From NCBI RefSeq assembly GCF_009931435.1, contig NZ_CP043414.1: 64,000 nucleotides of DNA; one strand, given 5' to 3'. Both the position numbers and the translations under genes were made by a program. Shown in pieces: positions 2,043 to 62,408 of the stretch. Below the pieces are notes generated by a model. It searched no databases. It saw only the letters and a list, made by a program, of their open reading frames with translations, and was not told where the DNA came from. Position 1 is the first letter of the stretch, and every line of letters starts with the position of its first letter. Source of the stretch: Escherichia coli (lineage in GTDB: Bacteria > Pseudomonadota > Gammaproteobacteria > Enterobacterales > Enterobacteriaceae).

Positions 2043-2964
2043 CTGACGACAAAATAGCGTCAAGAGAAGTGACCAGTTTCGGTAATCCCGCTTGTAAATG
2101 CTCACTAAACGCCTGAACCAGCGCTGATGACGGGCGGTGCAGGGGGCGGATCAGGCTGACGGTGAACGGAACCGCAATACTGAACCGCCGTACCACTAAA
2201 CCGCTTGCCGCATAATCCAGTGCGGTGAGCGGGTTAACCACCGAAACACCTACCCCCGCCCGTACCATTGCGCAGACTGATGCGGCGCTGTGGGTTTCTA
2301 CGATCATGCGTCGTTTAACCTGATTCTCAGTAAACAATTGATCCAGCAACTGGCGATAGCTGTCAGTACGGGAAAGGCTGATGTAGTTCTCACCCTGAAA
2401 ATCATCCGGCGTTAATACCTTTTTTACCGCCAGCGGATGATCCGGGGGTAACACACATACTTCATCTAAAGAGAGTAATTCGGTACGTTCTGTTCCCGCA
2501 GGCGTATGGAGTGTCTCGGTGAGTCCTAAATCATGACGCTGGGCCGAGAGCCACTCTTCAAGTAGCGGTGACTCCTGCGGCACGATATTTAAGCTGACAT
2601 CGGGATAACGTGCCAGAAAGGGTTGCAGGAGCTGCGGTAAAAAAGATTGCGAAAAGACCGGCAGGCAGGCAATAGACAGTTCTCCCTGGCGAAACTCGCG
2701 CAGACTTTCTGCGGCACTGACAATGCGATCCAGTCCGTACCAGGATCGTTGCACTTCTTCAAACAGACGCAGTCCTTGCACGGTAGGATGTAATCGTCCA
2801 CGTATGCGCTCAAACAATTTCAGCCCGATCACCTTCTCAAAGCGCGCCAGTTCGCGGCTGACGGTTGGCTGTGAGGTGTGTAGCAGGTGTGCCGCCTCAG
2901 TCAGGCTTCCGGCGGTCATTACCGCATGAAAAATTTCAATATGACGTAAGTTAACGGCGGCCAT
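2029..2964 (-). CDS. lysR: LysR-type transcriptional activator of lysA
   Basis: 311 aa, N-terminal HTH; divergent from lysA. Confidence 0.9.
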
Positions 2965-3085
2965 TAGCGCTCTCTCGCAATCCGGTAATCCATATCATTT
3001 TTGCATAGACTCGACATAAATCGATATTTTTTATTCTTTTTATGATGTGGCGTAATCATAAAAAAGCACTTATCTGGAGTTTGTT

Positions 3086-4348
3086 ATGCCACATTCACTG
3101 TTCAGCACCGATACCGACCTCACCGCCGAAAATCTGCTGCGTTTGCCCGCAGAATTTGGCTGCCCGGTGTGGGTCTACGATGCGCAAATTATTCGTCGGC
3201 AGATTGCAGCGCTGAAACAGTTTGATGTGGTGCGCTTTGCACAGAAAGCCTGTTCCAATATTCATATTTTGCGCTTAATGCGTGAGCAGGGCGTAAAAGT
3301 GGATTCCGTCTCGTTAGGCGAAATAGAGCGTGCACTGGTGGCGGGTTACAATCCGCAAACGCACCCCGATGATATTGTTTTTACGGCAGATGTTATCGAT
3401 CAGGCGACGCTTGAACGCGTCAGTGAATTGCAAATTCCGGTGAATGCGGGTTCTGTTGATATGCTCGACCAACTGGGTCAGGTTTCGCCAGGGCATCGGG
3501 TATGGCTGCGTGTTAATCCGGGGTTTGGTCACGGGCATAGCCAAAAAACCAATACCGGTGGCGAAAACAGCAAGCACGGTATCTGGTACACCGATCTGCC
3601 CGCCGCACTGGACGTGATACAACGTCATCATTTGCAGCTGGTCGGCATTCACATGCACATTGGTTCTGGCGTTGATTATGCCCATCTGGAACAGGTATGT
3701 GGTGCTATGGTGCGTCAGGTCCTCGAATTCGGTCAGGATTTACAGGCTATTTCTGCGGGCGGTGGGCTTTCTATTCCTTATCAACAGGGTGAAGAGGCGG
3801 TTGATACCGAACATTATTATGGTCTGTGGAATGCCGCGCGTGAGCAAATCGCCCGCCATTTGGGCCATCCTGTGAAACTGGAAATTGAACCGGGTCGCTT
3901 TCTGGTAGCGCAGGCTGGCGTATTAATTACTCAAGTGCGGAGCGTCAAACAAATGGGTAGCCGCCACTTTGTGCTGGTTGATGCCGGGTTCAACGATCTG
4001 ATGCGCCCGGCAATGTACGGTAGTTACCACCATATCAGTGCCCTGGCATCTGATGGTCGTTCTCTGGAACACGCACCAACGGTGGAAACCGTCGTCGCCG
4101 GACCGTTATGTGAATCGGGCGATGTCTTTACCCAGCAGGAAGGGGGAAATGTCGAAACCCGCGCCTTGCCGGAAGTGAAGGCAGGTGATTATCTGGTACT
4201 GCATGATACAGGGGCATATGGCGCATCAATGTCATCCAACTACAATAGCCGTCCGCTGTTACCAGAAGTTCTGTTTGATAATGGTCAGGCGCGGTTGATT
4301 CGCCGACGCCAGACCATTGAAGAATTACTGGCGCTGGAATTGCTTTAA
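3086..4348 (+). CDS. lysA: Diaminopimelate decarboxylase
   Basis: 420 aa, PLP-dependent Orn/DAP decarboxylase fold; recognised sequence. Confidence 0.95.
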   Translation: MPHSLFSTDTDLTAENLLRLPAEFGCPVWVYDAQIIRRQIAALKQFDVVRFAQKACSNIHILRLMREQGVKVDSVSLGEIERALVAGYNPQTHPDDIVFTADVIDQATLERVSELQIPVNAGSVDMLDQLGQVSPGHRVWLRVNPGFGHGHSQKTNTGGENSKHGIWYTDLPAALDVIQRHHLQLVGIHMHIGSGVDYAHLEQVCGAMVRQVLEFGQDLQAISAGGGLSIPYQQGEEAVDTEHYYGLWNAAREQIARHLGHPVKLEIEPGRFLVAQAGVLITQVRSVKQMGSRHFVLVDAGFNDLMRPAMYGSYHHISALASDGRSLEHAPTVETVVAGPLCESGDVFTQQEGGNVETRALPEVKAGDYLVLHDTGAYGASMSSNYNSRPLLPEVLFDNGQARLIRRRQTIEELLALELL

Positions 4349-4354
4349 CTGCGG

Positions 4355-5386
4355 TTAGTCGCTGGTTGCATGATGACTTGCCTCCAGCGACGGAGTTGAC
4401 ACTGAATGGCGACGTACCAGCGTCGGACTAAAGACATTAGTGATTTCCGGGAGAGGGCGATTATCAGCCAGCGCCAAAGCCAGTTCGGCAGCCTGGGTCG
4501 CCATCGTCACGATTGGGTAACGCACGGTGGTCAGACGCGGGCGCACATAGCGTGACACCAGCACATCATCAAAGCCAATTAACGAAATCTCACCCGGTAC
4601 TTCAATACCATTATCATTGAGAACGCCCATCGCACCCGCCGCCATTGAATCGTTATAACAGGCTACCGCAGTGAAATTCCTTCCGCGTCCCAAAAGCTCG
4701 GTCATTGCCTGTTCGCCGCCGCTTTCGTCTGGTTCGCCAAATGTCACTAGCCGGTCATTGGCCGGAATACCACTTTCAGCAAGGGCATCGTAATACCCTT
4801 GCAGACGATCTTCGGCGTCAGAAATAGAGTGGTTAGAGCACAGATAACCAATGCGGGTATGACCTTGCTGAATTAAATGACGCGTTGCCAGCCAGGCACC
4901 GTAACGATCGTCCAGAGCAATACAACGGTTTTCAAAGCCAGGCAGGATACGGTTGATCAGCACCATACCGGGCATTTGTTTCATTAATGAGGCTAAATCG
5001 GCATCCGGGATCATTTTGGCATGGACAACCAGCGCAGCACAGCGGTGGCGGATCAGTTGCTCAATGGCCTGACGCTCTTTTTGTTCGTTGTGGTAACCGT
5101 TGCCAATCAATAAAAAATTACCAGTGTGATAAGCCACCTGCTCGACCGCTTTCACCATTGCACCGAAAAACGGATCGGAAACATCACCAACGACCAGACC
5201 GACCGTTTCAGTGGTCTGTTGCGCCAGCGCACGGGCGTTGGCGTTCGGGTGATAACTAAGAGACTCCATTGCACTATGCACAGCCAGCCGGGAGGCTTCG
5301 CTGGCTTTGGGTGAATTATTAATGACGCGGGAAACGGTGGCGACTGAAACGCCTGCCAGTCGGGCTACATCCTTTATGGTCGCCAT
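4355..5386 (-). CDS. galR: Galactose operon repressor, LacI family
   Basis: 343 aa, N-terminal HTH MATIKDVARLAGVSVATVSRV; convergent with lysA. Confidence 0.9.
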   Translation of the reverse strand: MATIKDVARLAGVSVATVSRVINNSPKASEASRLAVHSAMESLSYHPNANARALAQQTTETVGLVVGDVSDPFFGAMVKAVEQVAYHTGNFLLIGNGYHNEQKERQAIEQLIRHRCAALVVHAKMIPDADLASLMKQMPGMVLINRILPGFENRCIALDDRYGAWLATRHLIQQGHTRIGYLCSNHSISDAEDRLQGYYDALAESGIPANDRLVTFGEPDESGGEQAMTELLGRGRNFTAVACYNDSMAAGAMGVLNDNGIEVPGEISLIGFDDVLVSRYVRPRLTTVRYPIVTMATQAAELALALADNRPLPEITNVFSPTLVRRHSVSTPSLEASHHATSD

Positions 5387-5400
5387 GAAAATACCTTAGT

Positions 5401-5416
5401 GGGTAAACGCTTACAT
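5401..5416. promoter_or_regulatory. Putative GalR/GalS-type operator upstream of galR
   Basis: gggtaaacgcttacat matches 14 of 16 positions of the gal operator consensus GTGKAANCGNTTMCAC as I recall it; about 15 bp upstream of the galR start. Confidence 0.35.
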
Positions 5417-5599
5417 TCTGTCAGTGTTACGGAAAATACCTGTTGGTTCAAGTGGCGACGTGTTTTCATCGTGGGAATGTGAGCCAAACGCAAATAAATA
5501 AGACAAAAAAAGAGATTGCAAACCTTTGGTTACACTTTGCGAAACGCTGTTGCGATTGACCGCTGGTTGCGTTTGGCTTCAGGTTGCTAAAGTGGTGGT

Positions 5600-9317: not shown

Positions 9318-9321
9318 GCTT

Positions 9322-9352
9322 TCACCAGATGGCATATTCAGCCATCTGGTGA
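9322..9352. terminator. Hairpin between convergent lplT and the DUF4139 gene
   Basis: Perfect 12-bp inverted repeat tcaccagatggc / gccatctggtga with 7-nt loop; no clear U-tract. Confidence 0.4.
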
Positions 9353-9355
9353 AGA

Positions 9356-12535: not shown

Positions 12536-12671
12536 CCGGTTATCCTCATTTGGCCCACCTATGATAATAGTCTGTTTATAAATGGACGTTATATATCTTG
12601 AAAGCAGGAAAATCTTAAATTGTGAGGCTAACAGGAGTGAGTACGCTCTCCTGCAGGAGAGCGTACGGATA

Positions 12672-33287: not shown

Positions 33288-33324
<37 letters not shown>

Positions 33325-48074: not shown

Positions 48075-49167
48075 GGTTGTATTGCTGTGCCGTCCGGGCT
48101 TTGAAAAAGAGTGCGCCGCAGAAATTACCGATAAAGCCGGCCAGCGGGAAATTTTCGGTTTTGCCCGCGTGAAAGAGAATGCGGGTTATGTCATTTATGA
48201 ATGTTATCAACCTGATGATGGCGATAAGTTAATCCGTGAGCTGCCGTTCAGTTCATTAATTTTTGCCCGCCAGTGGTTTGTGGTCGGGGAACTCCTGCAG
48301 CATTTGCCGCCAGAAGATCGTATTACCCCCATTGTCGGCATGTTACAGGGCGTAGTAGAGAAGGGCGGTGAACTGCGTGTTGAAGTTGCCGATACCAACG
48401 AAAGCAAAGAGTTGCTGAAATTCTGCCGTAAATTCACCGTGCCGCTACGCGCTGCCTTGCGCGATGCCGGGGTGCTGGCGAACTATGAAACGCCGAAGCG
48501 TCCGGTTGTGCATGTATTCTTTATTGCACCAGGTTGCTGCTATACCGGTTACTCATACAGCAACAATAATTCGCCGTTCTATATGGGCATTCCGCGCCTG
48601 AAATTTCCGGCAGATGCGCCGAGTCGTTCCACGCTCAAACTGGAAGAGGCATTTCATGTGTTTATTCCGGCGGATGAGTGGGATGAACGTCTGGCGAACG
48701 GGATGTGGGCGGTGGATTTAGGCGCTTGCCCAGGCGGCTGGACCTACCAACTGGTGAAGCGCAACATGTGGGTTTATTCCGTCGACAACGGCCCGATGGC
48801 GCAAAGTCTGATGGATACCGGACAGGTGACGTGGCTGCGGGAAGACGGTTTCAAATTCCGTCCGACACGCAGCAATATCTCCTGGATGGTATGCGATATG
48901 GTTGAAAAACCGGCGAAAGTTGCGGCATTGATGGCGCAGTGGCTGGTTAATGGCTGGTGCCGTGAAACAATCTTCAACCTCAAACTGCCGATGAAAAAAC
49001 GCTACGAAGAAGTGTCACATAATCTGGCGTATATTCAGGCACAGCTTGATGAACATGGCATAAATGCTCAGATTCAGGCGCGACAGTTGTATCACGATCG
49101 TGAAGAAGTGACGGTGCACGTCCGCCGTATCTGGGCTGCGGTGGGTGGTCGTCGCGACGAGCGATAA
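48067..49167 (+). CDS. rlmM: 23S rRNA 2'-O-ribose C2498 methyltransferase
   Basis: 366 aa; 8-bp overlap with ygdD. Confidence 0.9.
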
Positions 49168-49169
49168 CA

Positions 49170-49195
49170 GGCAAGGCCGGGGCGTCGTCTCCGGC
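49170..49195. terminator. Hairpin between convergent rlmM and fucR
   Basis: Inverted repeat aggccgg...ccggcct. Confidence 0.4.
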
Positions 49196-49210
49196 CTGCT
49201 ACCCTTTCCG

Positions 49211-49942
49211 TCAGGCTGTTACCAAAGAAGCCGCAACCTGGCGCTCATCAGAAATAATGTGCGTGACCTCATCCAGATGCCCGATGCGGGCTTCCCCTGA
49301 ACGATTAAATTTACTTTTATCAATCAATAACAACGATTGCGCGGCACGTTTTAATAGCATCGATTTGTAATCAGCGTTGATGGCATTGGAGTCCCACAGT
49401 GCACCGCTGCTATCGATCCCTTCACAAGAAAAAATAAACAGATCGATTTCCAGCGATTTAAGTTGGGAAATCAGCGAGGGATTGACGTAACAGCCATATT
49501 TGCGCTCAAGTGTGCCGCCGGAACTGATCAGTTGAATGCGTTCACGTTTACCGAGTTCATGGCAAATCGGATGGCTATTGGTGAAGACCTGAATGTCGAT
49601 GTCAGGCAACTGGCGTGCCAGATACCAGCAAGTTGAACTGGCGTCTAAGGCTATCACCATCCCTTCTTCAATCCACGCGAGCGCTTCGCGCGCGATATCT
49701 GCTTTATGCGCATAATGGCTTTTCAGCCGGATGTGAAAGGGATCGCCACTGTCTTGATTTTGACGGTGGATATATTTAGCGCGCCCATGATTGCGCAGAA
49801 TTTTACCCTGCGTCTGTAATTCATTGAGATCGCGACGAATGGTTTCTTTACTGACCTTTAGCTGTTCAGAGAGAGCTTCCGTGGTCAGGCTGGTATGGTT
49901 CAGCAGCAGGTCGACTATCGCTTGCTGGCGTGCCGCTTTCAT
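49211..49942 (-). CDS. fucR: L-fucose operon activator, DeoR family
   Basis: 243 aa from the ATG at 49942; N-terminal HTH, DeoR C-terminal domain. Confidence 0.9.
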   Translation of the reverse strand: MKAARQQAIVDLLLNHTSLTTEALSEQLKVSKETIRRDLNELQTQGKILRNHGRAKYIHRQNQDSGDPFHIRLKSHYAHKADIAREALAWIEEGMVIALDASSTCWYLARQLPDIDIQVFTNSHPICHELGKRERIQLISSGGTLERKYGCYVNPSLISQLKSLEIDLFIFSCEGIDSSGALWDSNAINADYKSMLLKRAAQSLLLIDKSKFNRSGEARIGHLDEVTHIISDERQVAASLVTA

Positions 49943-49999
49943 ATTTTTCACCCCATCATTCGATAACCGCCCGCGTCATGCGGGCGTACCGGTATGAGA

Positions 50000-50422
50000 T
50001 TACGGTGTTACCCCTTTTTTTAAAAGAATATTCCCGTACTTCGCTCGTTCGCCTGTGATAACGATCGCAAAGGCTTTTTGCGCCCGCTCATAAAACGCAA
50101 AACGATTGATGCGGATGATGTCAGGACAGGGGGCTTGTAGTGAAAGCGCATTACGATAACGTCGTTCTACTTCAGGATCGAGAGTGTCACCTTCTACCGC
50201 CGCCATCATCACCAGCGGCGGTGCATAACTGTCCAGTTCAAATAACGGGATAATCGCCTGGAGTAAGTCGCTCACCAACAGGCCATCAGCACGGATCACC
50301 TGCGGTCCCATCGAATGGGCGGGAAAGTGAGCATCGGAAAAAATAATTTCATCTCCATGTCCCATCTCTGCCAGCACTTTCAATAGTTCGGGAGAAATTA
50401 ACGGCGAAATTGTTTTCAGCAT
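50000..50422 (-). CDS. fucU: L-fucose mutarotase
   Basis: 140 aa RbsD/FucU family. Confidence 0.9.
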
Positions 50423-50423
50423 T

Positions 50424-51842
50424 TCACACTTCCTCTATAAATTCAGGTTCAGTTTGTGGGTAGAAATAACGGTACTGATAATGAATCTGCGCGCGAGCTT
50501 CTTCCGGGCTGTTAAATTCCCCTACGCCATACCAACCGAACAGCGCAGCTCCTGCGACGGTCGTTTCGGCGTCGTCGAGAACTTTTACCGGAATATCAAG
50601 CATATTGGCTTTAATCTGATTCCACAATGTGTTGCGACTTCCTCCACCTACTAACAATAATTCAGAGGCTTTAAAGTGCCCGATTTTTTCCAGCATCTGT
50701 AGATTGCGCTGTAATTGCGCGGTTAACCCTTCCAGCGCCGCGCGATAGAAATGTCCGCGCGTGGTATTGAGCGTCACTCCTTGCCAGCCAGCGTTCTGAC
50801 ACGACAATAAATCACACTGCATTTTCACGCCATCCGCGCCAGGCGCGATCAGACGAGCCTCTTCAATCAACATTTGCCAGGGCGTTTCAGTAGTCCAGAA
50901 CAGTTTTCTCACCCATTCCAGCACGCCGGATGCCAGCCATTGCATACCGGGGTTATACAATCCTGCCTGGCTATCCAGTTCGCAGGTGGAACCGGCGTAC
51001 TGACTTAGCAGTGAAGTATCAACCTGCGTACTGCGGACCATTAAAATTTCCCAGGTACCGGAAGAGAGCACGGGTTCATTTTGTTCGGCACCAGCACCAA
51101 AAAGGGCGAACTGGGTATCATGACCTGCAGAAATTACCGGTATGCCAACGGGTAAGCCGAGCATTGCTGCGGCGCTGTTCTGTAGCGTACCAATCTGTTC
51201 ACCCGCTTCCACCAGACGAGGGAAGAGTCGGCGTGGAATACCGGTGGCTTGTAAAATTTGCGGACTGAAATCGCGTTGCTGGATATCCAGCATCTGGCTG
51301 GTTCCGGCCATCGTGATATCAGTAGTGAATTCGCCGGTTAAACGGTGGTTAATCAGCGACGAAATAAAGAGCCAGGCGTGCGCGCGTTCCAGCAGTTGTG
51401 GATGATTTTCTTTCAACCACACCAATTTATATAACGTATTGAAACTAAAGGCTCCGACGCCAGAAATAGCCTGCAACTGCTGTGCGGAGATCAACCGTTC
51501 AATATTGTCCATTACCGCTGCTGTTCGCGGACATTTCCAGCTAATGATCGGATAGAGCAAATCGCCTTGCTTATCTACCAGAGCGCCATCCACACCAAAG
51601 GTGGTGACGGCGATACCGCGGATGTGGCATTCAGTCAGTTCACTATTGATTTGCCGACAGCAATCAGCAAAGCGTTGCAAAATGGCGTCTAAAGACCACT
51701 GGTGCCAGGTGTTGTTTTCCATCGCGATATCGCTGGCATTAGGCGTTGAGGCGCGGGCAACAATTTTTCCCTGCCGATTAACCGCGATGGCCCTGACATT
51801 GGTTGCGCCACAGTCGAGTACCAGGATAACTTCTTGTTTCAT
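50424..51842 (-). CDS. fucK: L-fuculokinase (FGGY family)
   Basis: 472 aa from the ATG at 51842 (strong RBS aggag 7 nt upstream); the ORF-track start at 51872 has no RBS and sits in a hairpin. Confidence 0.9.
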
Positions 51843-51858
51843 AATCGCTCCTGCAATA

Positions 51859-51886
51859 TAGCCGGATAACATTGTTTATCCGGCTA
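51859..51886. other. Perfect 11-bp inverted repeat in the fucI-fucK intergenic region
   Basis: tagccggataa-cattgt-ttatccggcta. Confidence 0.4.
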
Positions 51887-51950
51887 ACCACTCTTGCTTG
51901 TTCAGGCCCGGTAGCCGGAGCGACCGGGCATCACATCAGGGAGTAATGTA

Positions 51951-53726
51951 TTAACGCTTGTACAACGGACCGTAGTTCTGGCAAGCGCGGTAATCCAGGC
52001 CTTCAATATCCATGCCGTGCGCAGCCCAGGCAGAAGGACGATACACTTTGGTCTCTTCAACGTTGTGCATACATACCGGGATACGCAGCATGGAGGCGAG
52101 AGTGATAAAGTCTGCGCCAACGTGGCCGATGGTCAGAACCCCATGGTTAGCGCCCCAGTTCGCCATTACCGAGTACACATCCGTAAACGGCCCTTTACCG
52201 GTGAGGCGCGGTGCAAACCAGGTGGTTGGCCAGGTTGAGTTGGTGCGTTTGTTGAGGATGTCATGCACATCCTTCGGTAACTCAACGCTCCAGCCTTCCG
52301 CGATTTGCAGTACCGGTCCCAGGCCTTTGATGATGTTGACACGGGTCATGGTGAACGGGACACCGCCTTCAGTAAGGAAGCGGGAAGAGTAACCACCGCC
52401 ACGGAAATATTCGTGGATAGCCGGGCACCATTCGGTCGCGGCGAGGCAAGCGTCAGCCTCTTGCTGAGAGATTTCCCAGTGCGGCTTCATCGTCGGTTTA
52501 CCTTCGCTGTCGCGTTGTTTACAGGATCCGTCCAGCGCAGCAGAACCGGAGTTGATCAAGTGGATGATGCCGTGTTCTGCCAGTCCGTCCAGTTTATGCC
52601 CCGTTACTCGCTCAATTGCTTCTGGTGACCAGTAGGTACGCACATCGGCAAATACCTGAGCGGTACCGGTGAGCTGGTGGCCCATTAGCATTGCCACGCC
52701 GTTAAGACTGTCGTTTTCGGTCGCCACGACGAAGGGTTCACGCACGCCATTCCAGTCAAATGAACTGTTAAGGATCGCTTCGGCGGTGTCGCCATTGGGA
52801 TATTGATCGGTCCAGTGACGTTGTCCCTGGAAGCCCGCAGCGATGGCGTTGTAGCCAAGTGATTCTTCCACGCGACCAATATCGGCCAGTTTGCTGTTGC
52901 CTTGCATCATGTCGCGGATACACATCGCCATCAGTAAACTTTCGCGTAGAACTGCGCGGCTTTGCTCGGCATTGCGTTGATACTGTTTGTTATTTTCATC
53001 TTCGCCATAGCGGAAGTTTTTATCAGCCCAGGCCAGCGCCATTTCCAGTTCTGCTTCGTCGTAAATCTTCTGATCAATACGGCGACGCAGTTCGGTCATA
53101 TCCACCGCCTGGACTTTCATTCCCAGCCAGGATTCAAAGAAGTTGTGGTCAACGATGGAACCGGCGATCCCCATCGAAACGCCGCCCAGCGACAGATAGC
53201 TTTTACCTTTCATACTGGCGACTGCCAAACCGGCGCGGGCAAAGCGCAGCAGTTTTTCTTCAACGTCGGCAGGAATCGATGTGTCATCGGCATCCTGAAC
53301 GTCATGACCGTAAATGGAGAATGCCGGGATGCCTTTCTGGCTGTGAGCTGCCAGAGCCGCTGCCAGGTAAACAGCGCCGGGACGTTCAGTGCCGTTAAAG
53401 CCCCAAATGGCTTTCGGGCGGGTAGGGTCCATGTCAATGGTTTCACTGCCATAGCACCAGCAAGGCGTTACCGTAATGGTGAGGCCTACATTCTGGCTGC
53501 TGAATTTTTCTTCGCAAGCAGCAGCTTCAGCCATACCCGCGATACAGGTATCGGAAATGACACACTCGACGGCAGCTCCGCAGGCATGGCGCAGTTTCTC
53601 GGTCAGCAGTGCGGCCGTAGCTTTCGCCATATTCATTGTTTGTTCTTCAAGCGACTCACGAACACCCATGCGACGACCGTCAATAACCGGGCGGATACCA
53701 ATTTTCGGTAACGTATTAATTTTCAT
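51951..53726 (-). CDS. fucI: L-fucose isomerase
   Basis: 591 aa; recognised sequence. Confidence 0.95.
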
Positions 53727-53808
53727 CAGGATTCCTCATCTCGCTTTATTGGCGCTCTGCTAAGGCGGAGAAAGGAAACCACCGAAGCAGTAGTATTGGT
53801 CATTATTT

Positions 53809-53824
53809 GCTAACTCGAGTTAGC
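53809..53824. promoter_or_regulatory. 16-bp perfect palindrome GCTAACTCGAGTTAGC, putative operator (copy 1, 83 bp upstream of fucI)
   Basis: Exact self-complementary 16-mer; an identical copy lies 239 bp away. Confidence 0.45.
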
Positions 53825-54047
53825 TTAGGTTTGTAGGCTTTTTATGCACAACTTTTTTGTTGTTGAAATGTGAGGGGCTTCACGAGAAGTGGTTAAAATA
53901 CGATCTCTGTCAAATTATTATTTAGCGGGATAAAAATAAATTTTACGTATAATCAAATGGTTATTAGATTTTAATGGTTATGCATCACAGTTTTAACTCA
54001 AATGATTTGGCTAATTTGTATACCTAAAATAGCTTTAAAAGGCGATC

Positions 54048-54063
54048 GCTAACTCGAGTTAGC
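54048..54063. promoter_or_regulatory. 16-bp perfect palindrome GCTAACTCGAGTTAGC, putative operator (copy 2, 133 bp upstream of the ABC ATPase gene)
   Basis: Identical to copy 1; immediately preceded by the palindrome gcgatcgc. Confidence 0.45.
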
Positions 54064-54195
54064 AAAATGCGAAGAATAGATTGATACGATGAATATTTAT
54101 TCAAAGGTTATTCGTATCACAGTGGAGATGGCTTTAGTAGCGACGTTTATGCCGTACTTCACATTTTCAGTTTCTGATTATTGAGGAAAGCTGCA

Positions 54196-55695
54196 ATGTC
54201 CGAAACATTTTTGCAAATGAAGCATATCACCAAACGCTTTCCTGGAGTGTTGGCGCTTAATGACGTGCAATTTACCCTACGCCGGGGCGAGGTTCATGCA
54301 TTATTAGGTGAAAATGGTGCAGGAAAATCTACATTAATGAAAATTTTGTCGGGGGTTTATCAACCTGATGAAGGCGAAATAATTTTTGAAGATAAATTAG
54401 TCTCATTTTCTGATCCGTTAAGTGCGCAAAACGTAGGTATTACTATTATTCACCAGGAATTTAATTTATTTCCCGAGCTTACAGTAGAAGAAAATATTTT
54501 TATCGGCAGGGAGTTTTGTAAAAAAAATCGCTGGCGTCTGGATGAGAAACAGCAACGCAAGGCGACGATTGAAATTTTGCAAAAATTAAATTTGGCGATC
54601 AAACCAGATACTCTGGTTGCCGACCTTACGGTAGCTCAACAACAGATGGTAGAAATTGCCAAGGCCATTTCGGTTAACGCCAGGATTCTCATTATGGATG
54701 AACCTACTGCGGCGTTAACAGAAACTGAAATTGAAAGCTTATTTCGCGTCACCCGGTTATTGAAAGAACAGGGGACCGGCATTGTGTATATATCCCACCG
54801 TCTGGAAGAGTTGGCGCTAATTGCCGACCGCGCGACTGTAATGCGTGATGGTCAGTACATCAGCACAGTAGATTATGAGTGCGTAAAAATCAGCGATCTG
54901 ATTGCCATGATGGTTGGTCGCGATTTAGGGAATATCTATCCCCGCCGCGAGGCCATACAGCAGCGGATGCCGGTTCTGGAGGTCAACGGACTGACGCGCA
55001 AAGGCGTACTGAACGATATTAATTTTACGCTTTATCGTGGCGAGATCCTCGGCTTTGCCGGACTGATGGGGGCAGGTCGTACTGAACTTGCGCGTGCGAT
55101 TTTTGGTGCGGACTCCATTGACAGCGGAACGCTAAAGTTAAATGGTAAGGAAACCGTTATTAAAGATATTTCGGATGCTATTCAGCAGGGAATTAGTTAC
55201 CTGACGGAAGACCGAAAAAAAGAAGGGTTGGCACTGAATTTATCTGTTGAACGAAATATTATGTTAGGAAATTACCCTGAGTATTCCGATCGTTTTGGGA
55301 ATGTCGATTCGCGTCGTTGCCAACAAACCAGTGAGGAACAGGTAAAAGCGTTAAGGATTAAAACGCCAAATCTTGAACAGGCTGCATTAAATCTAAGTGG
55401 AGGAAATCAGCAGAAAATTATAATTGCACGTTGGGTGTGTAAAGATACTGATATTTTAATCTTCGATGAACCCACTCGCGGCATTGATGTTGGCGCCAAA
55501 CTGGAAATCTATGAGTTAATGAATCGCCTGGTGGCAAAAGGGAAATCAATCATCATGATCTCCTCTGAATTGCCGGAGGTGTTAGGAATGTGCGACCGTA
55601 TTTTAGTGATGCGCAGTGGTCGAATTACTGGCGAACTTAGCGCAAATGAAGCGACACAAGAAAAAATCATGCAATACGCGACGTTAGAGGATTAA
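54196..55695 (+). CDS. Sugar ABC transporter ATP-binding protein with two NBDs (RbsA/MglA/XylG-like)
   Basis: 499 aa from the ATG at 54196 (RBS gaggaaag); Walker A GENGAGKST and a second NBD. Confidence 0.85.
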   Translation: MSETFLQMKHITKRFPGVLALNDVQFTLRRGEVHALLGENGAGKSTLMKILSGVYQPDEGEIIFEDKLVSFSDPLSAQNVGITIIHQEFNLFPELTVEENIFIGREFCKKNRWRLDEKQQRKATIEILQKLNLAIKPDTLVADLTVAQQQMVEIAKAISVNARILIMDEPTAALTETEIESLFRVTRLLKEQGTGIVYISHRLEELALIADRATVMRDGQYISTVDYECVKISDLIAMMVGRDLGNIYPRREAIQQRMPVLEVNGLTRKGVLNDINFTLYRGEILGFAGLMGAGRTELARAIFGADSIDSGTLKLNGKETVIKDISDAIQQGISYLTEDRKKEGLALNLSVERNIMLGNYPEYSDRFGNVDSRRCQQTSEEQVKALRIKTPNLEQAALNLSGGNQQKIIIARWVCKDTDILIFDEPTRGIDVGAKLEIYELMNRLVAKGKSIIMISSELPEVLGMCDRILVMRSGRITGELSANEATQEKIMQYATLED

Positions 55696-55698
55696 ATT

Positions 55699-56682
55699 AT
55701 GACTATCTCTGTAACCTCTCCAGACAGCAATAATAAGAAAATAAAGATAAATAAAGAACTTTTGATGCGCCTTGCGCCTCTTTTTAGCTTAATTATATTA
55801 GTGCTGTTTTTTAGTTTCAGCTCTCCCTTTTTCTTTAATACCGAAAATATCATGACGATTGCTCTGCAAACGTCGGTTATCGGCATTATGGCCATTGGGG
55901 TAACTTTCGTCATTATTACCGCGGGCATCGATCTTTCATTGGGTTCCGTGGTGGCTTTTTCTGGTGTCGCCGTGGGGATTTGCGCCACACTGGGCCTGCC
56001 GCTGCCAGTGTGTATTATTGCCGGTGTTTTAGCCGGTGGAATGTGCGGCTATGTGAATGGTTTGTTGGTCACTAAAATGACTATTCCACCGTTTATCGCT
56101 ACCTTGGGCCTGATGATGTCCGTCAGAGGTATCAATATGGTGATGACCGACGGGCGCGCCATCTATTTTGCCGATTACCCGATGTTCAAAACGCTCGCTC
56201 AGGGACGCTTGTTTGATGTGCTGCCTTATCCTGTTTTCTACCTGGTCATTGTGGCGCTTGTCGGCGCTTACATCCTGAAGAAAACGGTTATTGGTCGCTA
56301 TGTCTATGCCGTAGGCAGTAATGAAGTTGCTGCTCATCTTTCTGGTATTAAAGTTCAGCGCGTGAAAATTTTCGTCTATGCCTTCTGTGGTTTATTAACC
56401 GGGATTGCGGGTGTCATTCTCGCTTCTCGTCTCAACTCCGGACAACCGACGGTGGGTGTGGGTTATGAGCTGGAAGCTATTGCTGCGGTAGTGATCGGCG
56501 GAACCAGCTTAATGGGCGGTATTGGCACTATTGGCGGCACAATCATTGGCGCTTTCATTATGAGTGTACTGAAAAATGGCCTCAATTTAATGGGGGTCTC
56601 TCAGTTCTGGCAAATGGTCGCGATGGGCGTAGTTGTGGTCGCTGCCGTTTACCTCGATACATTACGCAAAAAGATTCGTTGA
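55699..56682 (+). CDS. Sugar ABC transporter permease (RbsC-like)
   Basis: 327 aa, multi-TM; starts 3 bp after the ATPase stop. Confidence 0.85.
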   Translation: MTISVTSPDSNNKKIKINKELLMRLAPLFSLIILVLFFSFSSPFFFNTENIMTIALQTSVIGIMAIGVTFVIITAGIDLSLGSVVAFSGVAVGICATLGLPLPVCIIAGVLAGGMCGYVNGLLVTKMTIPPFIATLGLMMSVRGINMVMTDGRAIYFADYPMFKTLAQGRLFDVLPYPVFYLVIVALVGAYILKKTVIGRYVYAVGSNEVAAHLSGIKVQRVKIFVYAFCGLLTGIAGVILASRLNSGQPTVGVGYELEAIAAVVIGGTSLMGGIGTIGGTIIGAFIMSVLKNGLNLMGVSQFWQMVAMGVVVVAAVYLDTLRKKIR

Positions 56683-56755
56683 CTTAGGCTCCCTGTTTTA
56701 TCGGGAAACAACTGCCCTGACGTTAAGGGTGATTCACTCAGAACGGAGTACAACA

Positions 56756-57706
56756 ATGAAAACCAGGCATTTTATCTATGCGTTATCTCTGCTGGCTTGC
56801 GTAAGTTCCAGCGCACTGGCGAAGGATTTAAATCTTCCGGTTGTTAGTAAAGGTTTCCAACATGAATTCTGGCAAACCGTAAAAATGGGGACTGAAGCTG
56901 CGGCTAAAGAGTTGGGGGATAAAACCAGCTATGTTGGCCCGGCTGATGAAACGCAAATAGCCGAGCAAATTCAGTTAGTCGAAAATGCGATGGCGCAGAA
57001 ACCGAATGGCTTGCTTCTGGCAGCCCTCGACGCGAATGCGCTCGCCCCACTGGTAGAAACGGCAAATTCACGCGGTATCAAAGTGGTGACCTTTGATTCA
57101 GGCATCAATTCAGACATTCCGGTGAGTTTTGTCGCCACCAATAACCGTAAAGCAGGTGCTCAGGCAGCTGATGCCTTAGCTGCGCAGGTAAATAATAAAG
57201 GGAAAGTTGGGATTATCGCGCACGTTGCAGGAACATCTTCCGCTATTGAACGCTCGGAAGGCTTCATGGAGCGTATGAAAGAAAAATATCCTGACATTAA
57301 AGTCTTACCCGTTCAGTACAGCGATGGTGACCCGCAAAAAGCGATGGATAAAACTATCGATATGATTCAGGCCAATCCCGATCTTGCTGGGATCTATGGC
57401 ACCAATGAAGGTTCAACGCTCGGGGTGGCGAATGCCATTGATAGCCAGAATCTGAAAGGTAAGGTGAAGGTCATTGGTTTTGATAGTACGGAAGCGATTA
57501 TTAACTTCCTGAAGAACGGGGTCATTCAGGGCTTTGTTGTTCAGGATGCATACCAGATTGGCTATCAAGGGATCAAAACGTTGAACGCGGCCCTTTCGGG
57601 GCAAGCCGTTGAAAAAGAGATCGATATTCCCGTGAAATTTGTTAATGCCGAGAATATTAACACGCCAGAAATCGACAAACTCCTGCACCCATTCGGTAAG
57701 AAATAA
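56756..57706 (+). CDS. Periplasmic sugar-binding protein (RbsB-like)
   Basis: 316 aa from the ATG at 56756; signal peptide MKTRHFIYALSLLACVSSSALA; type-I periplasmic binding fold. Confidence 0.85.
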   Translation: MKTRHFIYALSLLACVSSSALAKDLNLPVVSKGFQHEFWQTVKMGTEAAAKELGDKTSYVGPADETQIAEQIQLVENAMAQKPNGLLLAALDANALAPLVETANSRGIKVVTFDSGINSDIPVSFVATNNRKAGAQAADALAAQVNNKGKVGIIAHVAGTSSAIERSEGFMERMKEKYPDIKVLPVQYSDGDPQKAMDKTIDMIQANPDLAGIYGTNEGSTLGVANAIDSQNLKGKVKVIGFDSTEAIINFLKNGVIQGFVVQDAYQIGYQGIKTLNAALSGQAVEKEIDIPVKFVNAENINTPEIDKLLHPFGKK

Positions 57707-57759
57707 AAAAATTGGGGATGAATTCTCATCCCCGTTATCTCCAGCGTCAGGGAGGCTTT

Positions 57760-59340
57760 ATGCACAACGGTTATTTTCTCGGTGTCGATGTCGGATCGGC
57801 CAGTGTCAGGGCAGGCGTTTACAGTGCCAGTGGCCACAGGCTGGCATTCGCTACTGCGCCCGTCTCCCAGTTTCGCCCTGGCGGCGAGCGTGTCGAACAG
57901 TCTTCGGCAGAGATCTGGCAACAAGTTTGTAAAACGGTGAAAGAGGCGACAGCTTTGGCAGGCATCCCCATTTCCGCAATTCGCTCACTGGGTTTTGACG
58001 CTACCTGCTCGCTGGTTGTTCTTGATGAACAAGGCCAGGGTTTAGCGGTTTCGTCCGGTGGATCTGCGAATCACGACATTATTATGTGGATGGATCATCG
58101 TGCAACTGTCGAGACGGCGCAGATTAACGCAACGAAGGATCCCGTATTGCGCTACGTTGGCGGCGAAGTGAGCGTCGAGATGGAGTTACCAAAGTTACGT
58201 TGGTTGAAGACGCATCTACCGCAAACCTGGCAGGCCGCTCATCGCTTTTTCGATCTGGCGGATTTTCTGGTCTGGAAAGCAACAGGGCGAGACGTCGCGG
58301 GATTGTGCACGCTAACGTGTAAATGGAATTATCTGGCTCATGAACAACGCTTTAGCCATAGCTTACTGGAATCGGTAGACCTGACCGACATGCTCGAAAG
58401 AATTCCCGCCGAAATTCTTCCGCCTGGTGCTGCCGTGGGAACTTTAACTGCCACAGCTGCTGAAGAATTAGGATTAACGACCAATGTTATCGTGGCCAGT
58501 GGTTTGATTGATGCCCATGCCGGTGGCATGGCGCTGGCTGGCGCGCAGCCATCAGGAACGCTGGCATTGATAAGCGGAACGTCGAATTGCCACATGTTGT
58601 GCAGTGAAAAAGAAATATTCACCCCTGGCGTCTGGGGGCCATACTGGTCGGCCATGTTGCCAAATTACTGGCTAACTGAAGGCGGGCAAAGCGCCGCAGG
58701 GGCGCTGGTGGAGTGGACGCTTCAGGAGTCCGGGGCAAGCGCAAATCTTTTTAACAAGGCGCAGCAACGCGGGTGTCATCCGATTCAACTGATTAATGAA
58801 TGGGTAGCCGCCCTGGAAGCTAACGAGTCAGAACCCACACGAAATTTACATGTGCTTGCCGATCATCACGGCAACCGTTCGCCACGAGCGCGGCCCGATG
58901 CCAGAGGCAGTGTTTATGGCTTAACACTGGAGCGTGGTGAAAATCAGCTCGCGCGGCTTTATCTTGCGACTTTACAGGCAATAGCCTTTGGCACCAGACA
59001 TATTATTGAAACTCTGCGGGAAAATGGGCATACCATTACCCGATTAACATTATGTGGTGGTGCAACGCACAACCCTTTATGGCTACGCGAATATGCAGAC
59101 GTGACAGGTTGCGATATCCACCTGATGCAAGAAGAAGATGCCGTTACGTTGGGCGCAGCAATTAGCGGCGCTGTTGCCAGCGGAGCATGGGGGGATTTTA
59201 CATCTGCGTGTAAAGCAATGGTTGAAGCCGGAGAGGTTATTCAGGTAAATCCACAACGCCGTGAATTTTTAGAGCGTAAATACCGGGTTTACCTGACGCT
59301 TTGGGAGCAACAACAGGCGGTTAACCAACTGATGCAATAA
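57760..59340 (+). CDS. FGGY-family pentulose/carbohydrate kinase (D-ribulokinase-like)
   Basis: 526 aa from the ATG at 57760 (RBS ggagg); N-terminal GVDVGSASVR motif. Confidence 0.8.
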   Translation: MHNGYFLGVDVGSASVRAGVYSASGHRLAFATAPVSQFRPGGERVEQSSAEIWQQVCKTVKEATALAGIPISAIRSLGFDATCSLVVLDEQGQGLAVSSGGSANHDIIMWMDHRATVETAQINATKDPVLRYVGGEVSVEMELPKLRWLKTHLPQTWQAAHRFFDLADFLVWKATGRDVAGLCTLTCKWNYLAHEQRFSHSLLESVDLTDMLERIPAEILPPGAAVGTLTATAAEELGLTTNVIVASGLIDAHAGGMALAGAQPSGTLALISGTSNCHMLCSEKEIFTPGVWGPYWSAMLPNYWLTEGGQSAAGALVEWTLQESGASANLFNKAQQRGCHPIQLINEWVAALEANESEPTRNLHVLADHHGNRSPRARPDARGSVYGLTLERGENQLARLYLATLQAIAFGTRHIIETLRENGHTITRLTLCGGATHNPLWLREYADVTGCDIHLMQEEDAVTLGAAISGAVASGAWGDFTSACKAMVEAGEVIQVNPQRREFLERKYRVYLTLWEQQQAVNQLMQ

Positions 59341-59404
59341 GACAAAAGTTGAAAATACTTTTATGATTGTGATTTGACGTCTGGATGTTAACTGGGAAAT
59401 ACCT

Positions 59405-60403
59405 ATGGCTAAAACAGTAGAGCAGATAGCCAGCGACCTGAATTTATCGGTTACGACCGTGCGACTGGTGCTAAATGGAAAAGCGGAACAATATCGAATC
59501 AGCGTCAAAACCCAAACGCGTATCAATGAATATGTTGAACGCTATGGTTATATCATTAATCATTCCGCTCGCAGCCTTAAGCTTAACAAAACTGATACAT
59601 TAGGGTTGATTGTTCCCAACATATCCAACGTCTTTTTTGCTACGCTGGCAGAAAAACTCGAACAACGCTGTCGACGTTCCGGATATCAACTTACAATCAG
59701 TTGCACTTATGATGATGTTGACTATGAAAATAAATTGACGAAAGCATTTATCGCACGAAATGTAGATGGTCTTTTTATTGTTCCTTCGACGCTGGAAAAT
59801 CAGCAGCATCATTTACGCAAAATTCGTAAGCCAATGGTTTTACTCGATCGTGATTTTAAATATACCGATAACGCATTGGTAGAGAGTAATAATATTTCTG
59901 GCGGAGAAAAGCTGACGCAAAATATTCTTGAGGCCGGGCAGGCTCCAGTATGGTTTTTGCTGGGAGATGCCGGTTTGCCGAGTATCAGCGATCGTCTGAC
60001 AGGTTATTTGAATGCGTTGGCAAAAAAAGGGATTACCCATCGCGATTGGGTGCGGGAAGGTCCGGTAAATACTCCGGAAGGCGGCTATGTCATTATGGAA
60101 AAACTCATTGAAGAGCAGGGATGTCCGCAGGCATTTATCGCCTCGTCTTTACCTGTGCTTGAAGGCGCTGTCCGCGCGATTCGCGACCGTCTTGGCGCTG
60201 TACCGCCAGAAATCAATATTGGCACTTTCGATGAACATCCTATGCTGGGATTTCTCGCCAACAATGTCTGGTCAATGCAGCAGGATGAAAATGCCTGGGC
60301 AGAAAAAGCGTTCGAAATGATGTTAAGCGCGATCGAAGAAAGACCAGTAAAAAAAACAGTTAAAGTAGAAATGAAATTAATTAAGCGCATAAGAAAAAAA
60401 TAA
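59405..60403 (+). CDS. LacI-family transcriptional regulator
   Basis: 332 aa; N-terminal HTH TVEQIASDLNLSVTTVRLVLNG; periplasmic-binding-like effector domain; AT-rich codon usage by eye. Confidence 0.85.
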   Translation: MAKTVEQIASDLNLSVTTVRLVLNGKAEQYRISVKTQTRINEYVERYGYIINHSARSLKLNKTDTLGLIVPNISNVFFATLAEKLEQRCRRSGYQLTISCTYDDVDYENKLTKAFIARNVDGLFIVPSTLENQQHHLRKIRKPMVLLDRDFKYTDNALVESNNISGGEKLTQNILEAGQAPVWFLLGDAGLPSISDRLTGYLNALAKKGITHRDWVREGPVNTPEGGYVIMEKLIEEQGCPQAFIASSLPVLEGAVRAIRDRLGAVPPEINIGTFDEHPMLGFLANNVWSMQQDENAWAEKAFEMMLSAIEERPVKKTVKVEMKLIKRIRKK

Positions 60404-60535
60404 TAATCGCCAAAAGATATCAGGCTACTGAACAATGATATTCAGTGGCCTCCCCTTACTAAAAATAACCCCGTCTTCATTTGCGGTGCTGTTTTACGCA
60501 ACAAGGCGAGCTGAAACTGTATCTGGAGAATAGAA

Positions 60536-61183
60536 ATGGAAAGAACACGTTTATCCCGTGAAATAATTGAAACCTGTCTGGAAATGACGCGCCTTGGGTT
60601 AAATCAGGGGACAGCGGGGAATGTCAGCACACGTTTTGAAAACGGCATGTTGATTACTCCCAGCGGTATTCCTTATGAAAGAATGACGGAGAATATGATT
60701 GTCTATGTTGATGGCAACGGCAAATACGAAGAAGGTAAGATTCCTTCCAGCGAATGGCGTTTCCATATGGCGGCCTATCAAAGCAGACCGGATGCCAACG
60801 CGGTTGTTCACAATCATGCCGTTCATTGCACGGCAGTTTCCATTCTTAACCGACCGATCCCTGCTATTCACTACATGATTGCGGCGGCTGGCGGTAATTC
60901 TATTCCTTGCGCGCCTTATGCGACCTTTGGAACTCGGGAACTTTCTGAACATGTTGCGCTGGCTCTCAAAAATCGTAAGGCAACTTTGTTACAACATCAT
61001 GGGCTTATCGCTTGTGAGGTGAATCTGGAGAAAGCGTTATGGCTGGCGCATGAAGTTGAAGTGCTGGCGCAACTTTACCTGACGACCCTGGCGATTACGG
61101 ACCCGGTGCCAGTGCTGAGCGATGAAGAGATTGCCGTAGTGCTGGAGAAATTCAAAACCTACGGGTTACGGATTGAAGAGTAA
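60536..61183 (+). CDS. fucA: L-fuculose-1-phosphate aldolase (class II aldolase)
   Basis: 215 aa; C-terminal two-thirds match FucA as I recall it, N-terminal ~68 residues appear diverged. Confidence 0.85.
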   Translation: MERTRLSREIIETCLEMTRLGLNQGTAGNVSTRFENGMLITPSGIPYERMTENMIVYVDGNGKYEEGKIPSSEWRFHMAAYQSRPDANAVVHNHAVHCTAVSILNRPIPAIHYMIAAAGGNSIPCAPYATFGTRELSEHVALALKNRKATLLQHHGLIACEVNLEKALWLAHEVEVLAQLYLTTLAITDPVPVLSDEEIAVVLEKFKTYGLRIEE

Positions 61184-61210
61184 TTTCGTAAAGCAACAAG
61201 GAGAAGGATG

Positions 61211-62359
61211 ATGGCTAACAGAATGATTCTGAACGAAACGGCATGGTTTGGTCGGGGGGCTGTTGGAGCTTTAACCGATGAGGTGAAACGCCGTGGTTAT
61301 CAGAAGGCACTGATCGTCACCGATAAAACGCTGGTGCAATGCGGCGTGGTGGCGAAAGTGACCGATAAGATGGATGCTGCAGGGCTGGCATGGGCGATTT
61401 ACGATGGTGTAGTGCCCAACCCGACAATTACTGTCGTCAAAGAAGGGCTTGGTGTATTCCAGAGTAGCGGTGCGGATTACCTGATCGCTATTGGTGGTGG
61501 TTCTCCACAGGACACGTGTAAAGCGATTGGCATCATCAGCAACAACCCGGAATTCGCCGATGTGCGCAGTCTGGAAGGGCTTTCCCCGACCAATAAACCC
61601 AGTGTACCGATTCTGGCAATCCCCACCACAGCAGGCACTGCGGCAGAAGTGACCATTAACTATGTGATCACTGACGAAGAAAAACGACGCAAGTTCGTTT
61701 GTGTTGATCCGCATGATATCCCGCAGGTGGCATTTATTGACGCTGACATGATGGATGGTATGCCGCCTGCGCTGAAAGCCGCGACGGGTGTCGATGCGCT
61801 CACTCATGCTATTGAGGGGTATATTACCCGTGGCGCGTGGGCGCTAACCGATGCACTGCACATTAAAGCGATTGAAATCATTGCTGGGGCGCTGCGAGGA
61901 TCGGTTGCTGGTGATAAGGATGCCGGAGAAGAAATGGCGCTCGGGCAGTATGTTGCGGGTATGGGCTTCTCGAATGTTGGGTTAGGGTTGGTGCATGGTA
62001 TGGCGCATCCACTGGGCGCGTTTTATAACACGCCACACGGTGTTGCGAACGCCATCCTGTTACCGCATGTCATGCGCTATAACGCTGACTTTACCGGTGA
62101 GAAGTACCGCGATATCGCGCGCGTTATGGGCGTGAAAGTGGAAGGTATGAGCCTGGAAGAGGCGCGTAATGCCGCTGTTGAAGCGGTATTTGCTCTCAAC
62201 CGTGATGTCGGTATTCCGCCACATTTGCGTGATGTTGGTGTACGCAAGGAAGACATTCCGGCACTGGCGCAGGCGGCTCTGGACGATGTTTGTACCGGTG
62301 GCAACCCGCGTGAAGCAACGCTTGAGGATATTGTAGCGCTTTACCATACCGCCTGGTAA
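61211..62359 (+). CDS. fucO: L-1,2-propanediol oxidoreductase (lactaldehyde reductase), iron-containing ADH
   Basis: 382 aa from the ATG at 61211 (an ATG at 61208 is also possible); recognised sequence. Confidence 0.9.
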   Translation: MANRMILNETAWFGRGAVGALTDEVKRRGYQKALIVTDKTLVQCGVVAKVTDKMDAAGLAWAIYDGVVPNPTITVVKEGLGVFQSSGADYLIAIGGGSPQDTCKAIGIISNNPEFADVRSLEGLSPTNKPSVPILAIPTTAGTAAEVTINYVITDEEKRRKFVCVDPHDIPQVAFIDADMMDGMPPALKAATGVDALTHAIEGYITRGAWALTDALHIKAIEIIAGALRGSVAGDKDAGEEMALGQYVAGMGFSNVGLGLVHGMAHPLGAFYNTPHGVANAILLPHVMRYNADFTGEKYRDIARVMGVKVEGMSLEEARNAAVEAVFALNRDVGIPPHLRDVGVRKEDIPALAQAALDDVCTGGNPREATLEDIVALYHTAW

Positions 62360-62375
62360 TTGCGCTGATGTGACG

Positions 62376-62408
62376 ATGCCGGATGCGACGTTTGCGCCGT
62401 ATCCGGCA
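62376..62408. repeat. REP-like palindrome between fucO and xni
   Basis: gccggatgcgacgtttgcgccgtatccggc. Confidence 0.5.

Follow-up and report, generated by a model that had tools for sequence, protein, structure and literature searches.

A conserved stem-loop of REP origin between fucI and fucK of Escherichia coli and its proposed role as a stabiliser of the fucI 3' end

REP sequences in operon spacers of the malE-malF and hisJ-hisQ type are said, from the work of Newbury et al. in 1987 and Stern et al. in 1988, to act as mRNA stabilisers. In E. coli these elements (palindromic units of the y, z1 and z2 classes, arranged in BIMEs) are defined by a conserved GTAG tag on the 5' side of the palindrome foot together with an imperfect palindrome whose stem carries a two-base mismatch or bulge (PMC3333891, PMC8266576), and both mRNA stabilisation and termination have been credited to them (PMC3333891, PMC8266576). 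TnpAREP needs both the GTAG and the mismatch, and B268TT, a synthetic REP mutant in which TT turns the stem into a perfect palindrome, was neither bound nor cleaved by TnpAREP in vitro (Ton-Hoang et al., PMC3333891). BIMEs also bind gyrase, IHF and Pol I (PMC3333891, PMC1525189), and the insertion sequence IS1397 inserts specifically into E. coli REPs (PMC1525189). Here we describe a hairpin between fucI and fucK of E. coli, a transcribed, untranslated and conserved stem-loop of REP origin, and compare it with these systems.

The window analysed is a 64,000-nt stretch of E. coli DNA in which the fuc operon lies on the minus strand. The preliminary description of this DNA had reported an 11-bp perfect inverted repeat between fucI and fucK, and a repeat search recovered the same arms, an 11-nt inverted repeat with 100% complementarity at 51859-51869 (TAGCCGGATAA) and 51876-51886 (TTATCCGGCTA) around a 6-nt loop. 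This hairpin, designated hairpin B, had been placed between the two cistrons, and that placement held: since the fucI stop codon TAA is at 51953-51951, hairpin B falls inside the 108-nt fucI-fucK spacer. A second, imperfect hairpin (hairpin A) lies upstream of it in the same spacer at 51906-51929. A 401-nt query around the site gave matches in 5424 of 5426 complete E. coli genomes, with fucI and fucK annotated there. The features of the junction, in the order in which they are transcribed, are as follows.

51951..53726, minus strand: coding sequence of fucI (L-fucose isomerase), stop codon TAA at 51953-51951, taken from the ORF list; its megablast matches are annotated fucI
51843..51950, minus strand: fucI-fucK intercistronic spacer of 108 nt, highly structured and diverging well below the fourfold-site rate in Escherichia
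51906..51929, minus strand: hairpin A, GCCCGGTCGC tccg GCTACCGGGC, the left-hand REP relic (iREP orientation) of an ancestral BIME
51887..51905, minus strand: linker between the two REP relics (BIME linker), from the spacer alignment
51876..51886, minus strand: 5' arm of hairpin B on the mRNA, UAGCCGGAUAA, in which GCCGGAU is the ancestral REP foot and the former GTAG is now GTTAG
51870..51875, minus strand: loop of hairpin B, ACAAUG in the window, holding a non-initiating ATG at 51872-51870
51859..51869, minus strand: 3' arm of hairpin B, UUAUCCGGCUA, in which the ancestral CC is now TT, removing the REP stem mismatch
51853..51858, minus strand: short unpaired stretch UAUUGC, rich in A/U, that separates hairpin B from the Shine-Dalgarno sequence, a candidate endonuclease site (RNase E type)
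51848..51852, minus strand: fucK Shine-Dalgarno sequence AGGAG, of which GGAG is invariant in 23 aligned spacers
50424..51842, minus strand: coding sequence of fucK (L-fuculokinase), 472 aa, start codon ATG at 51842

RNA folding, one of the checks that the preliminary description had proposed, supported the structure: in a 290-nt context, hairpin B formed with a pair probability of 0.96 and hairpin A with 0.99 (helix 1 being 97% paired in pair counts). Hairpin B alone, folded as RNA, had a free energy of -16.7 kcal/mol, and the 136-nt junction folded at -45.6 kcal/mol with a z score of -3.86. Four perfect hairpins with stems of 11 bp or more and loops of 3-10 nt were found in the window, whereas 200 dinucleotide shuffles gave 0.125 on average, so that such hairpins are about 30-fold commoner in the window than in shuffles. 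Among the other perfect hairpins, an 11-bp stem at 1228-1254 (GGGCCGGATGT gctgt ACATCCGGCCC) is followed by TTTT and carries the REP foot GCCGGAT/ATCCGGC, and by its sequence may be another REP-derived terminator-like hairpin; the remaining two are 13 bp at 9321-9353 and 11 bp at 12641-12666. REP-like sequences were also seen at 33289-33323 (REP profile match of 11.9 bits, E = 0.017) and at 62373-62407, the latter with GCCGGATGCGACGTTTGCGCCGTATCCGGC at 62378-62407, downstream of a fucO-like ORF.

The mechanical ORF list opens a 482-aa fucK (50424..51872) at an ATG which, as had been pointed out, lies inside the hairpin; we found it in the loop, which reads ACAATG on the mRNA (minus strand), at 51872-51870. 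The frame is open from 51872 and the long form is present in older GenBank records, where it was found in 45 contigs and in no other kind of entry, so that FucK of at least partly 482 aa would be conceivable. However, the loop AUG has no Shine-Dalgarno sequence and belongs to a hairpin of -17 kcal/mol, while the downstream ATG at 51842-51840 stands behind AGGAG at 51852-51848 with a spacing of 5 nt. Nor is the upstream ATG conserved: the corresponding codon of E. albertii is ATA, and other genera show an upstream frame that is closed or shifted, or that has no ATG at the matching position. The curated databases give 472 aa: K-12 RefSeq NP_417283.2 (a revised version) and PGAP annotate fucK as 1419 nt, and UniProt FUCK_ECOLI is the 472-aa form, which an exact look-up found in at least 1000 contigs. 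Position 1 of Pfam FGGY_N corresponds to residue 15 of the 482-aa form and residue 5 of the 472-aa form, so that in the 472-aa form the N-terminal FGGY_N domain starts close behind the initiator Met, as in FGGY carbohydrate kinases. In a tblastn search with one genome per species, 43 of 43 enterobacterial loci matched from residue 1 of the 472-aa query, with a start context of ATG AA(A/G/T) behind GGAG or GGGG. The fucI-fucK spacers are 50-183 nt long, have no common frame and are not related by multiples of three, and many of the orthologous spacers have no in-frame upstream start or meet a stop first. Overall, use of the upstream ATG can be practically dismissed and fucK starts at 51842 and encodes 472 aa, which was the start favoured in the preliminary description. 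The 482-aa ORF call is an artefact; the practical result is a small one, the curated length being already right.

Orthologous spacers of Citrobacter, Klebsiella, Salmonella and Raoultella planticola hold two inverted REPs (for example GCCCGGTGGCGCAAGCTTACCGGGCCTAC ... GTAGGCCGGATAAGCGCAGCGCCATCCGGC), and in the spacer alignment hairpin A corresponds to the left REP (iREP) and hairpin B to the right REP of these orthologous BIMEs. Hairpin B matches GTAGGCCGGATAAGCGCAGCGCCATCCGGC of 17 non-Escherichia spacers column for column, the distance from the right-hand REP or hairpin B to GGAG is identical in the aligned spacers, and the CCGGCTA tail of hairpin B also occurs in C. braakii and C. youngae. 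Hairpin A is degenerate at its tail, where CTAC has become CTGAAC in the alignment with REP1 of Citrobacter/Klebsiella. A REP profile (nhmmer) was built from the 17 non-Escherichia right-hand orthologous REPs, and in E. coli it matched the classical malE-malF REP (18.0 bits) and the tcdA-mltA BIME (22.0 and 18.1 bits); because the profile finds these REPs, the 17 orthologues are true members of the dispersed REP family. From these alignments it is shown, or nearly so, that hairpin B descends, in degenerate form, from the right-hand REP of an ancestral BIME (an inverted REP pair) in the fucI-fucK spacer, and, at the same strength, that this BIME was already there in the ancestor shared by Escherichia, Salmonella, Citrobacter and Klebsiella. 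This derived origin is the main point about hairpin B, and it had been missed by the preliminary description.

Relative to the ancestral REP, the Escherichia hairpin B has lost the GTAG tag, the orthologues reading GTAGGCCGG and the window, K-12, E. albertii and a further Escherichia locus (L005) reading GTTAGCCGG, a change of GTAGG to GTTAG. In the 3' arm CC has become TT, by which the AA/CC mismatch became AA/TT and the stem a perfect 11-bp stem. The inner stem GCGC...GCGCC is absent, and the hairpin is shorter than the ancestral REP by at least 2 nt. Four substitutions occurred in Escherichia, each creating a new base pair, and no sequence other than the four from Escherichia has these 4 extra pairs. 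The 7-bp foot, by comparison, has been kept from genus to genus, and S. diarizonae shows one compensatory change in it, of G-C to C-G. The stability of the Escherichia hairpin B (-16.7 to -17.6 kcal/mol) lies within the span of intact REPs (-13.5 to -20.7 kcal/mol).

Set beside an E. coli REP, hairpin B is likewise extragenic, occupies an orthologous REP-iREP position with an inverted partner, shares the GCCGGAT/ATCCGGC stem foot, and has been a target of IS1397. In contrast, it is 28 nt instead of 30-40 nt, has GTTAG for GTAG and A-T pairs for the two-base mismatch, and with the REP profile scores 7.7 bits in K-12 (E = 0.36), the window hairpin giving no match, against 18-22 bits for true REPs. 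It is also single-copy: with 38- and 54-nt hairpin queries, the median was 1 place per genome across 5424 E. coli genomes, where true REPs are present in high copy number, and only the 7-nt foot motif recurs. The K-12 RefSeq annotation lists no REP at this junction, but lists none even in the classical malE-malF spacer, and the REP catalogues examined contain no fuc entry. We call hairpin B a REP relic rather than a REP because natural equivalents of both inactivating changes are present in it, and by analogy with the published substrates it is predicted to be neither bound nor cleaved by TnpAREP, having lost both GTAG and the mismatch. A close parallel is B268TT, as both lose the stem mismatch via TT and become perfect palindromes; however, the behaviour of B268TT was established in vitro, whereas hairpin B is known here from its sequence, is a natural allele fixed across a clade, and additionally lacks GTAG.

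Two natural isolates of E. coli carry insertion sequences in this spacer:

IS1397 in E. coli BH100 (L052), 4035-5470: within hairpin B
IS2 in E. coli 13KWH46 (L053), 2669-3999: within hairpin A

In strain BH100, IS1397 lies at the boundary between the loop and the 3' arm of hairpin B with a GTTA duplication (window 51870-51867), and in strain 13KWH46, IS2 interrupts the apical part of hairpin A and has duplicated CTCCG (window 51920-51916). Targeting by REP-specific insertion sequences (IS1397, IS621) is one of the marks of a REP, and this single natural event shows that the REP identity of hairpin B is still visible to IS1397. Both insertions should be polar on fucKUR. In E. whittamii hairpin B is entirely absent and the spacer is 54 nt long. 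Because E. whittamii does without hairpin B and the IS1397 and IS2 insertions are tolerated in isolates, the hairpin element is not essential and any function would be modulatory.

Conservation of the hairpin, another of the proposed checks, was evaluated by comparing the spacer with fourfold-degenerate sites of fucI and fucK:

Window and K-12: fourfold divergence of fucI + fucK 9.5%; spacer 1/108; binomial P 2.5e-4
Window and L003, an Escherichia locus: fourfold divergence 16%; spacer 2/108; binomial P 1.8e-6
Window and E. albertii: fourfold divergence 23%; spacer 3/108; binomial P 3e-9
Window and L005: fourfold divergence 28%; spacer 8/108; binomial P 9e-8

Throughout these Escherichia comparisons the divergence of the 108-nt spacer is thus 4-10 times lower than that of fourfold-degenerate sites, these sites being an imperfect neutral standard and the four comparisons sharing history. 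Within hairpin B, no changes were found in the 22 arm positions across the four Escherichia comparisons and 5 were found in the 6 loop positions; all 3 spacer differences of E. albertii fall in the loop, which is GCAAUG in K-12 and most E. coli and GCCAUA in E. albertii. Among 5424 E. coli genomes, the 38-nt hairpin is identical to K-12 in 4911 and differs at one position in 513, mostly by A/G in the loop, the window allele (loop A for G) accounting for 476 genomes. The fucR-rlmM spacer, used as a control, was near the neutral rate (5-8/43 in three non-coli lineages), and a second control, the fucU-fucR spacer, was also conserved. Part of the spacer conservation may come from the fucK ribosome-binding region at the spacer 3' end, and the conservation of the arms, with no arm variation, fits an RNA stem and a protein-bound DNA palindrome alike.

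Several observations concern the surrounding operon. The fucU-fucR spacer (49943-49999, 57 nt) has 0-1 differences across Escherichia against 16-28% at fourfold sites, which suggests a constrained element, for example fucR translation signals or an internal promoter. The fourfold divergence between the window and K-12 (8.8% in fucI and 10.5% in fucK) is high for two E. coli strains. Upstream of fucI, fucP is absent (53727-62359), and in its place is a divergent plus-strand cluster with a sugar ABC transporter ATPase (54181-55695) and two permeases, continuing with an FGGY-family kinase (57712-59340), a substrate-binding protein and then fucA/fucO-like ORFs. Among 5426 complete E. coli genomes, only 384 have this arrangement without fucP, which corresponds to the fucose locus described as 'variant 2' (PMC10221146). 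The high fourfold divergence from K-12 points to a fuc locus that is divergent or has recombined, in connection with the variant lacking fucP. An Rfam 15 covariance scan of 49000-56000 (E <= 5) found nothing relevant; one Twister-sister match at 49164-49257 stays below threshold, with 24.1 bits (gathering score 34) and E = 0.092. It overlaps the spacer between the convergent fucR and rlmM, and a terminator hairpin matched by chance is its most likely explanation.

When 44 enterobacterial fucI-fucK spacers were folded and compared with shuffles, all of them proved structured and far more stable than the shuffles; the median z score was -4.0 and 41 of the 44 were below -2. The spacers were of several kinds: BIMEs, a single REP (C. 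sedlakii, E. whittamii, Kosakonia-like), hairpins with a U-run, and other insertions. In Raoultella, Kluyvera, some Enterobacter, Symbiopectobacterium and a MAG, a G+C-rich hairpin followed by a U-run stands directly before the fucK Shine-Dalgarno sequence; these hairpins occur in genera without REPs in the spacer, have the form of intrinsic terminators and are unrelated in sequence to hairpin B. The E. coli hairpin shares with those of Raoultella, Kluyvera and Enterobacter its position, operon and similar stability, but has no U-run and was not called as a terminator. In eight loci from several genera (L017, L018, L023, L024, L026, L028, L040 and L043) a terminator-form hairpin lies 10-25 nt before the fucK start in what is presumed to be a single operon. 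The junction thus holds a stable hairpin in each of the enterobacterial genomes examined, regardless of where its sequence came from, and the family as a whole seems to have a stable stem-loop at the 3' end of fucI. Two entries in the comparison need comment: a 382-nt contig labelled Agrococcus sp. (L046), whose FucK fragment is 98% identical to that of E. coli, is probably contamination, and a 'Serratia marcescens' assembly (L009) with a Citrobacter/Klebsiella-like fuc locus and a BIME may be mislabelled or contaminated.

We consider it probable that hairpin B, a REP/BIME relic which forms a stem-loop in the untranslated spacer, acts as a REP-type RNA stabiliser of the fucI 3' end. The fuc spacer, like those of malE-malF and hisJ-hisQ, has stable stem-loops downstream of a gene and a function suggested by conservation, but its REPs are relics rather than intact members, and the role proposed for them is read from sequence. 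The stabiliser role, which we infer from this analogy and from conservation, is the most likely one; the idea of processing or stability in the preliminary description is plausible, with indirect support from REP ancestry and purifying selection. Literature searches found no fuc-operon data on 3' ends, processing, half-lives or REPs. In the lineage of E. coli, E. albertii and the cryptic clade, the REP lost its GTAG, its two-base stem mismatch (CC to TT) and its G+C-rich inner stem, and four pair-creating substitutions built the perfect 11-bp stem of -17 kcal/mol, with about the stability of an intact REP. Hairpin B is present in the fuc(P)IKUR mRNA as untranslated spacer; these steps, too, are shown or nearly so. 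RNase E type cleavage prefers A-U/A-U-U. In the mechanism that we propose, an endonuclease may cut the A/U-rich stretch that follows the stem on its 3' side, or 3'-to-5' decay may arrive from downstream, and hairpins A and B together would block PNPase and RNase II. The fucI segment would outlive the fucKUR segment, which would set the ratio of isomerase to kinase and regulator, and the loss of GTAG and mismatch would hide the hairpin from TnpAREP, freezing it in place.

Other readings of the hairpin were weighed against this one. It may be a decayed REP without present function, kept by chance or by linkage to the fucK ribosome-binding site, and its absence from E. whittamii, the IS1397 and IS2 insertions of natural isolates, its single copy and failure against the REP profile, and a searchable literature that yields no experimental function are all in keeping with such a neutral fossil. 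We nevertheless regard this as unlikely, because the spacer is constrained in four Escherichia lineages to the extent given above while the neighbouring non-operon spacer is near the neutral rate, hairpin B changes in its loop and in none of its arm positions, and all four reshaping substitutions created base pairs. A transcription attenuator, in which RNA polymerase pausing or termination (intrinsic or Rho-dependent, as for BIMEs) lowers fucKUR relative to fucI, is quite unlikely. A U-run follows neither E. coli hairpin, the stem of hairpin B being followed by UAUUGCAGGAG, and a terminator scan of 51600-52200 found 0 terminator-like sites; a 108-nt untranslated gap is, moreover, short for Rho loading. 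These points have to be set against the terminator activity credited to REPs (PMC3333891) and the U-run hairpins at the same spacer position in Raoultella, Kluyvera, Enterobacter, Symbiopectobacterium and the MAG. The promoter scan called none, and because both scans were empty, neither an internal fucK promoter nor an intrinsic terminator is supported.

The stem ends 6 nt before AGGAG, an in-frame AUG is in its loop, and the apical CGCUCC of hairpin A is complementary to the Shine-Dalgarno region GGAGCG, which would fit a translational element that buries a spurious AUG, insulates the fucK ribosome-binding site from upstream anti-Shine-Dalgarno-like pairing and tunes initiation. We hold this to be very unlikely: the unpaired probability of the Shine-Dalgarno sequence in silico is 0.27-0.30 and essentially the same with arm complements, restored stem or deletion, that of the start codon is 0.75-0.77 and falls to 0.55 only when the 5' arm is complemented, and the loop AUG, with no Shine-Dalgarno sequence of its own, is absent from E. 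albertii. Insulation of the ribosome-binding site was rejected since the in-silico arm mutants hardly alter Shine-Dalgarno accessibility. Invariant arms around a variable centre are what would be expected of a dimer-binding palindrome, and proteins do bind BIMEs, yet a role at the DNA level (a palindrome bound by gyrase, IHF or another protein, or a cruciform) is hard to credit when the hairpin sequence is single-copy in E. coli and its half-site has 3 matches in the window, both arms included, with 0.81 expected, which is chance level. Unrelated hairpins stand at the same place in other genera, so structure rather than sequence appears to matter. REP-mediated translation stalling, for which according to Liang and Deutscher in 2015 the REP reportedly has to lie no more than about 15 nt from the stop codon, was set aside, as 21 nt separate the fucI stop from the beginning of hairpin A. 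Spot 42 has been reported to repress fucI and fucK, and a review lists fucK as a target (PMC12612679). A k-mer search found nt 48-55 of Spot 42 (CGUAAUCG) complementary to CGAUUAUG at 51840-51847, across the fucK start codon; this 8-nt match is at chance level, about 5 being expected by chance, and RNAduplex with full-length Spot 42 gave meaningless long duplexes.

Returning to the stabiliser, a further reading that we put forward tentatively, and for which the case is somewhat less than even, is that hairpin B is an exapted, immobilised REP: selection for an RNA stem-loop at the 3' end of fucI would have driven the four pair-creating substitutions, which would at the same time have abolished both determinants of TnpAREP recognition and turned a mobile repeat into a fixed, clade-wide regulator of the ratio of FucI to FucK/FucR. 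The hairpin is a known and ordinary kind of element which is clearly conserved, and it leaves existing ideas unchallenged; it offers a clean example of a mobile REP decaying into a fixed, conserved stem-loop inside an operon. If the stabiliser role is confirmed, it would explain how differing amounts of isomerase and of kinase and regulator are made from one transcript. If the exaptation is true, hairpin B would be the equivalent in nature of the laboratory 'TT' REP mutant, and would exemplify a need for a stem-loop at this junction which different enterobacteria satisfy with REPs, terminators or other hairpins.
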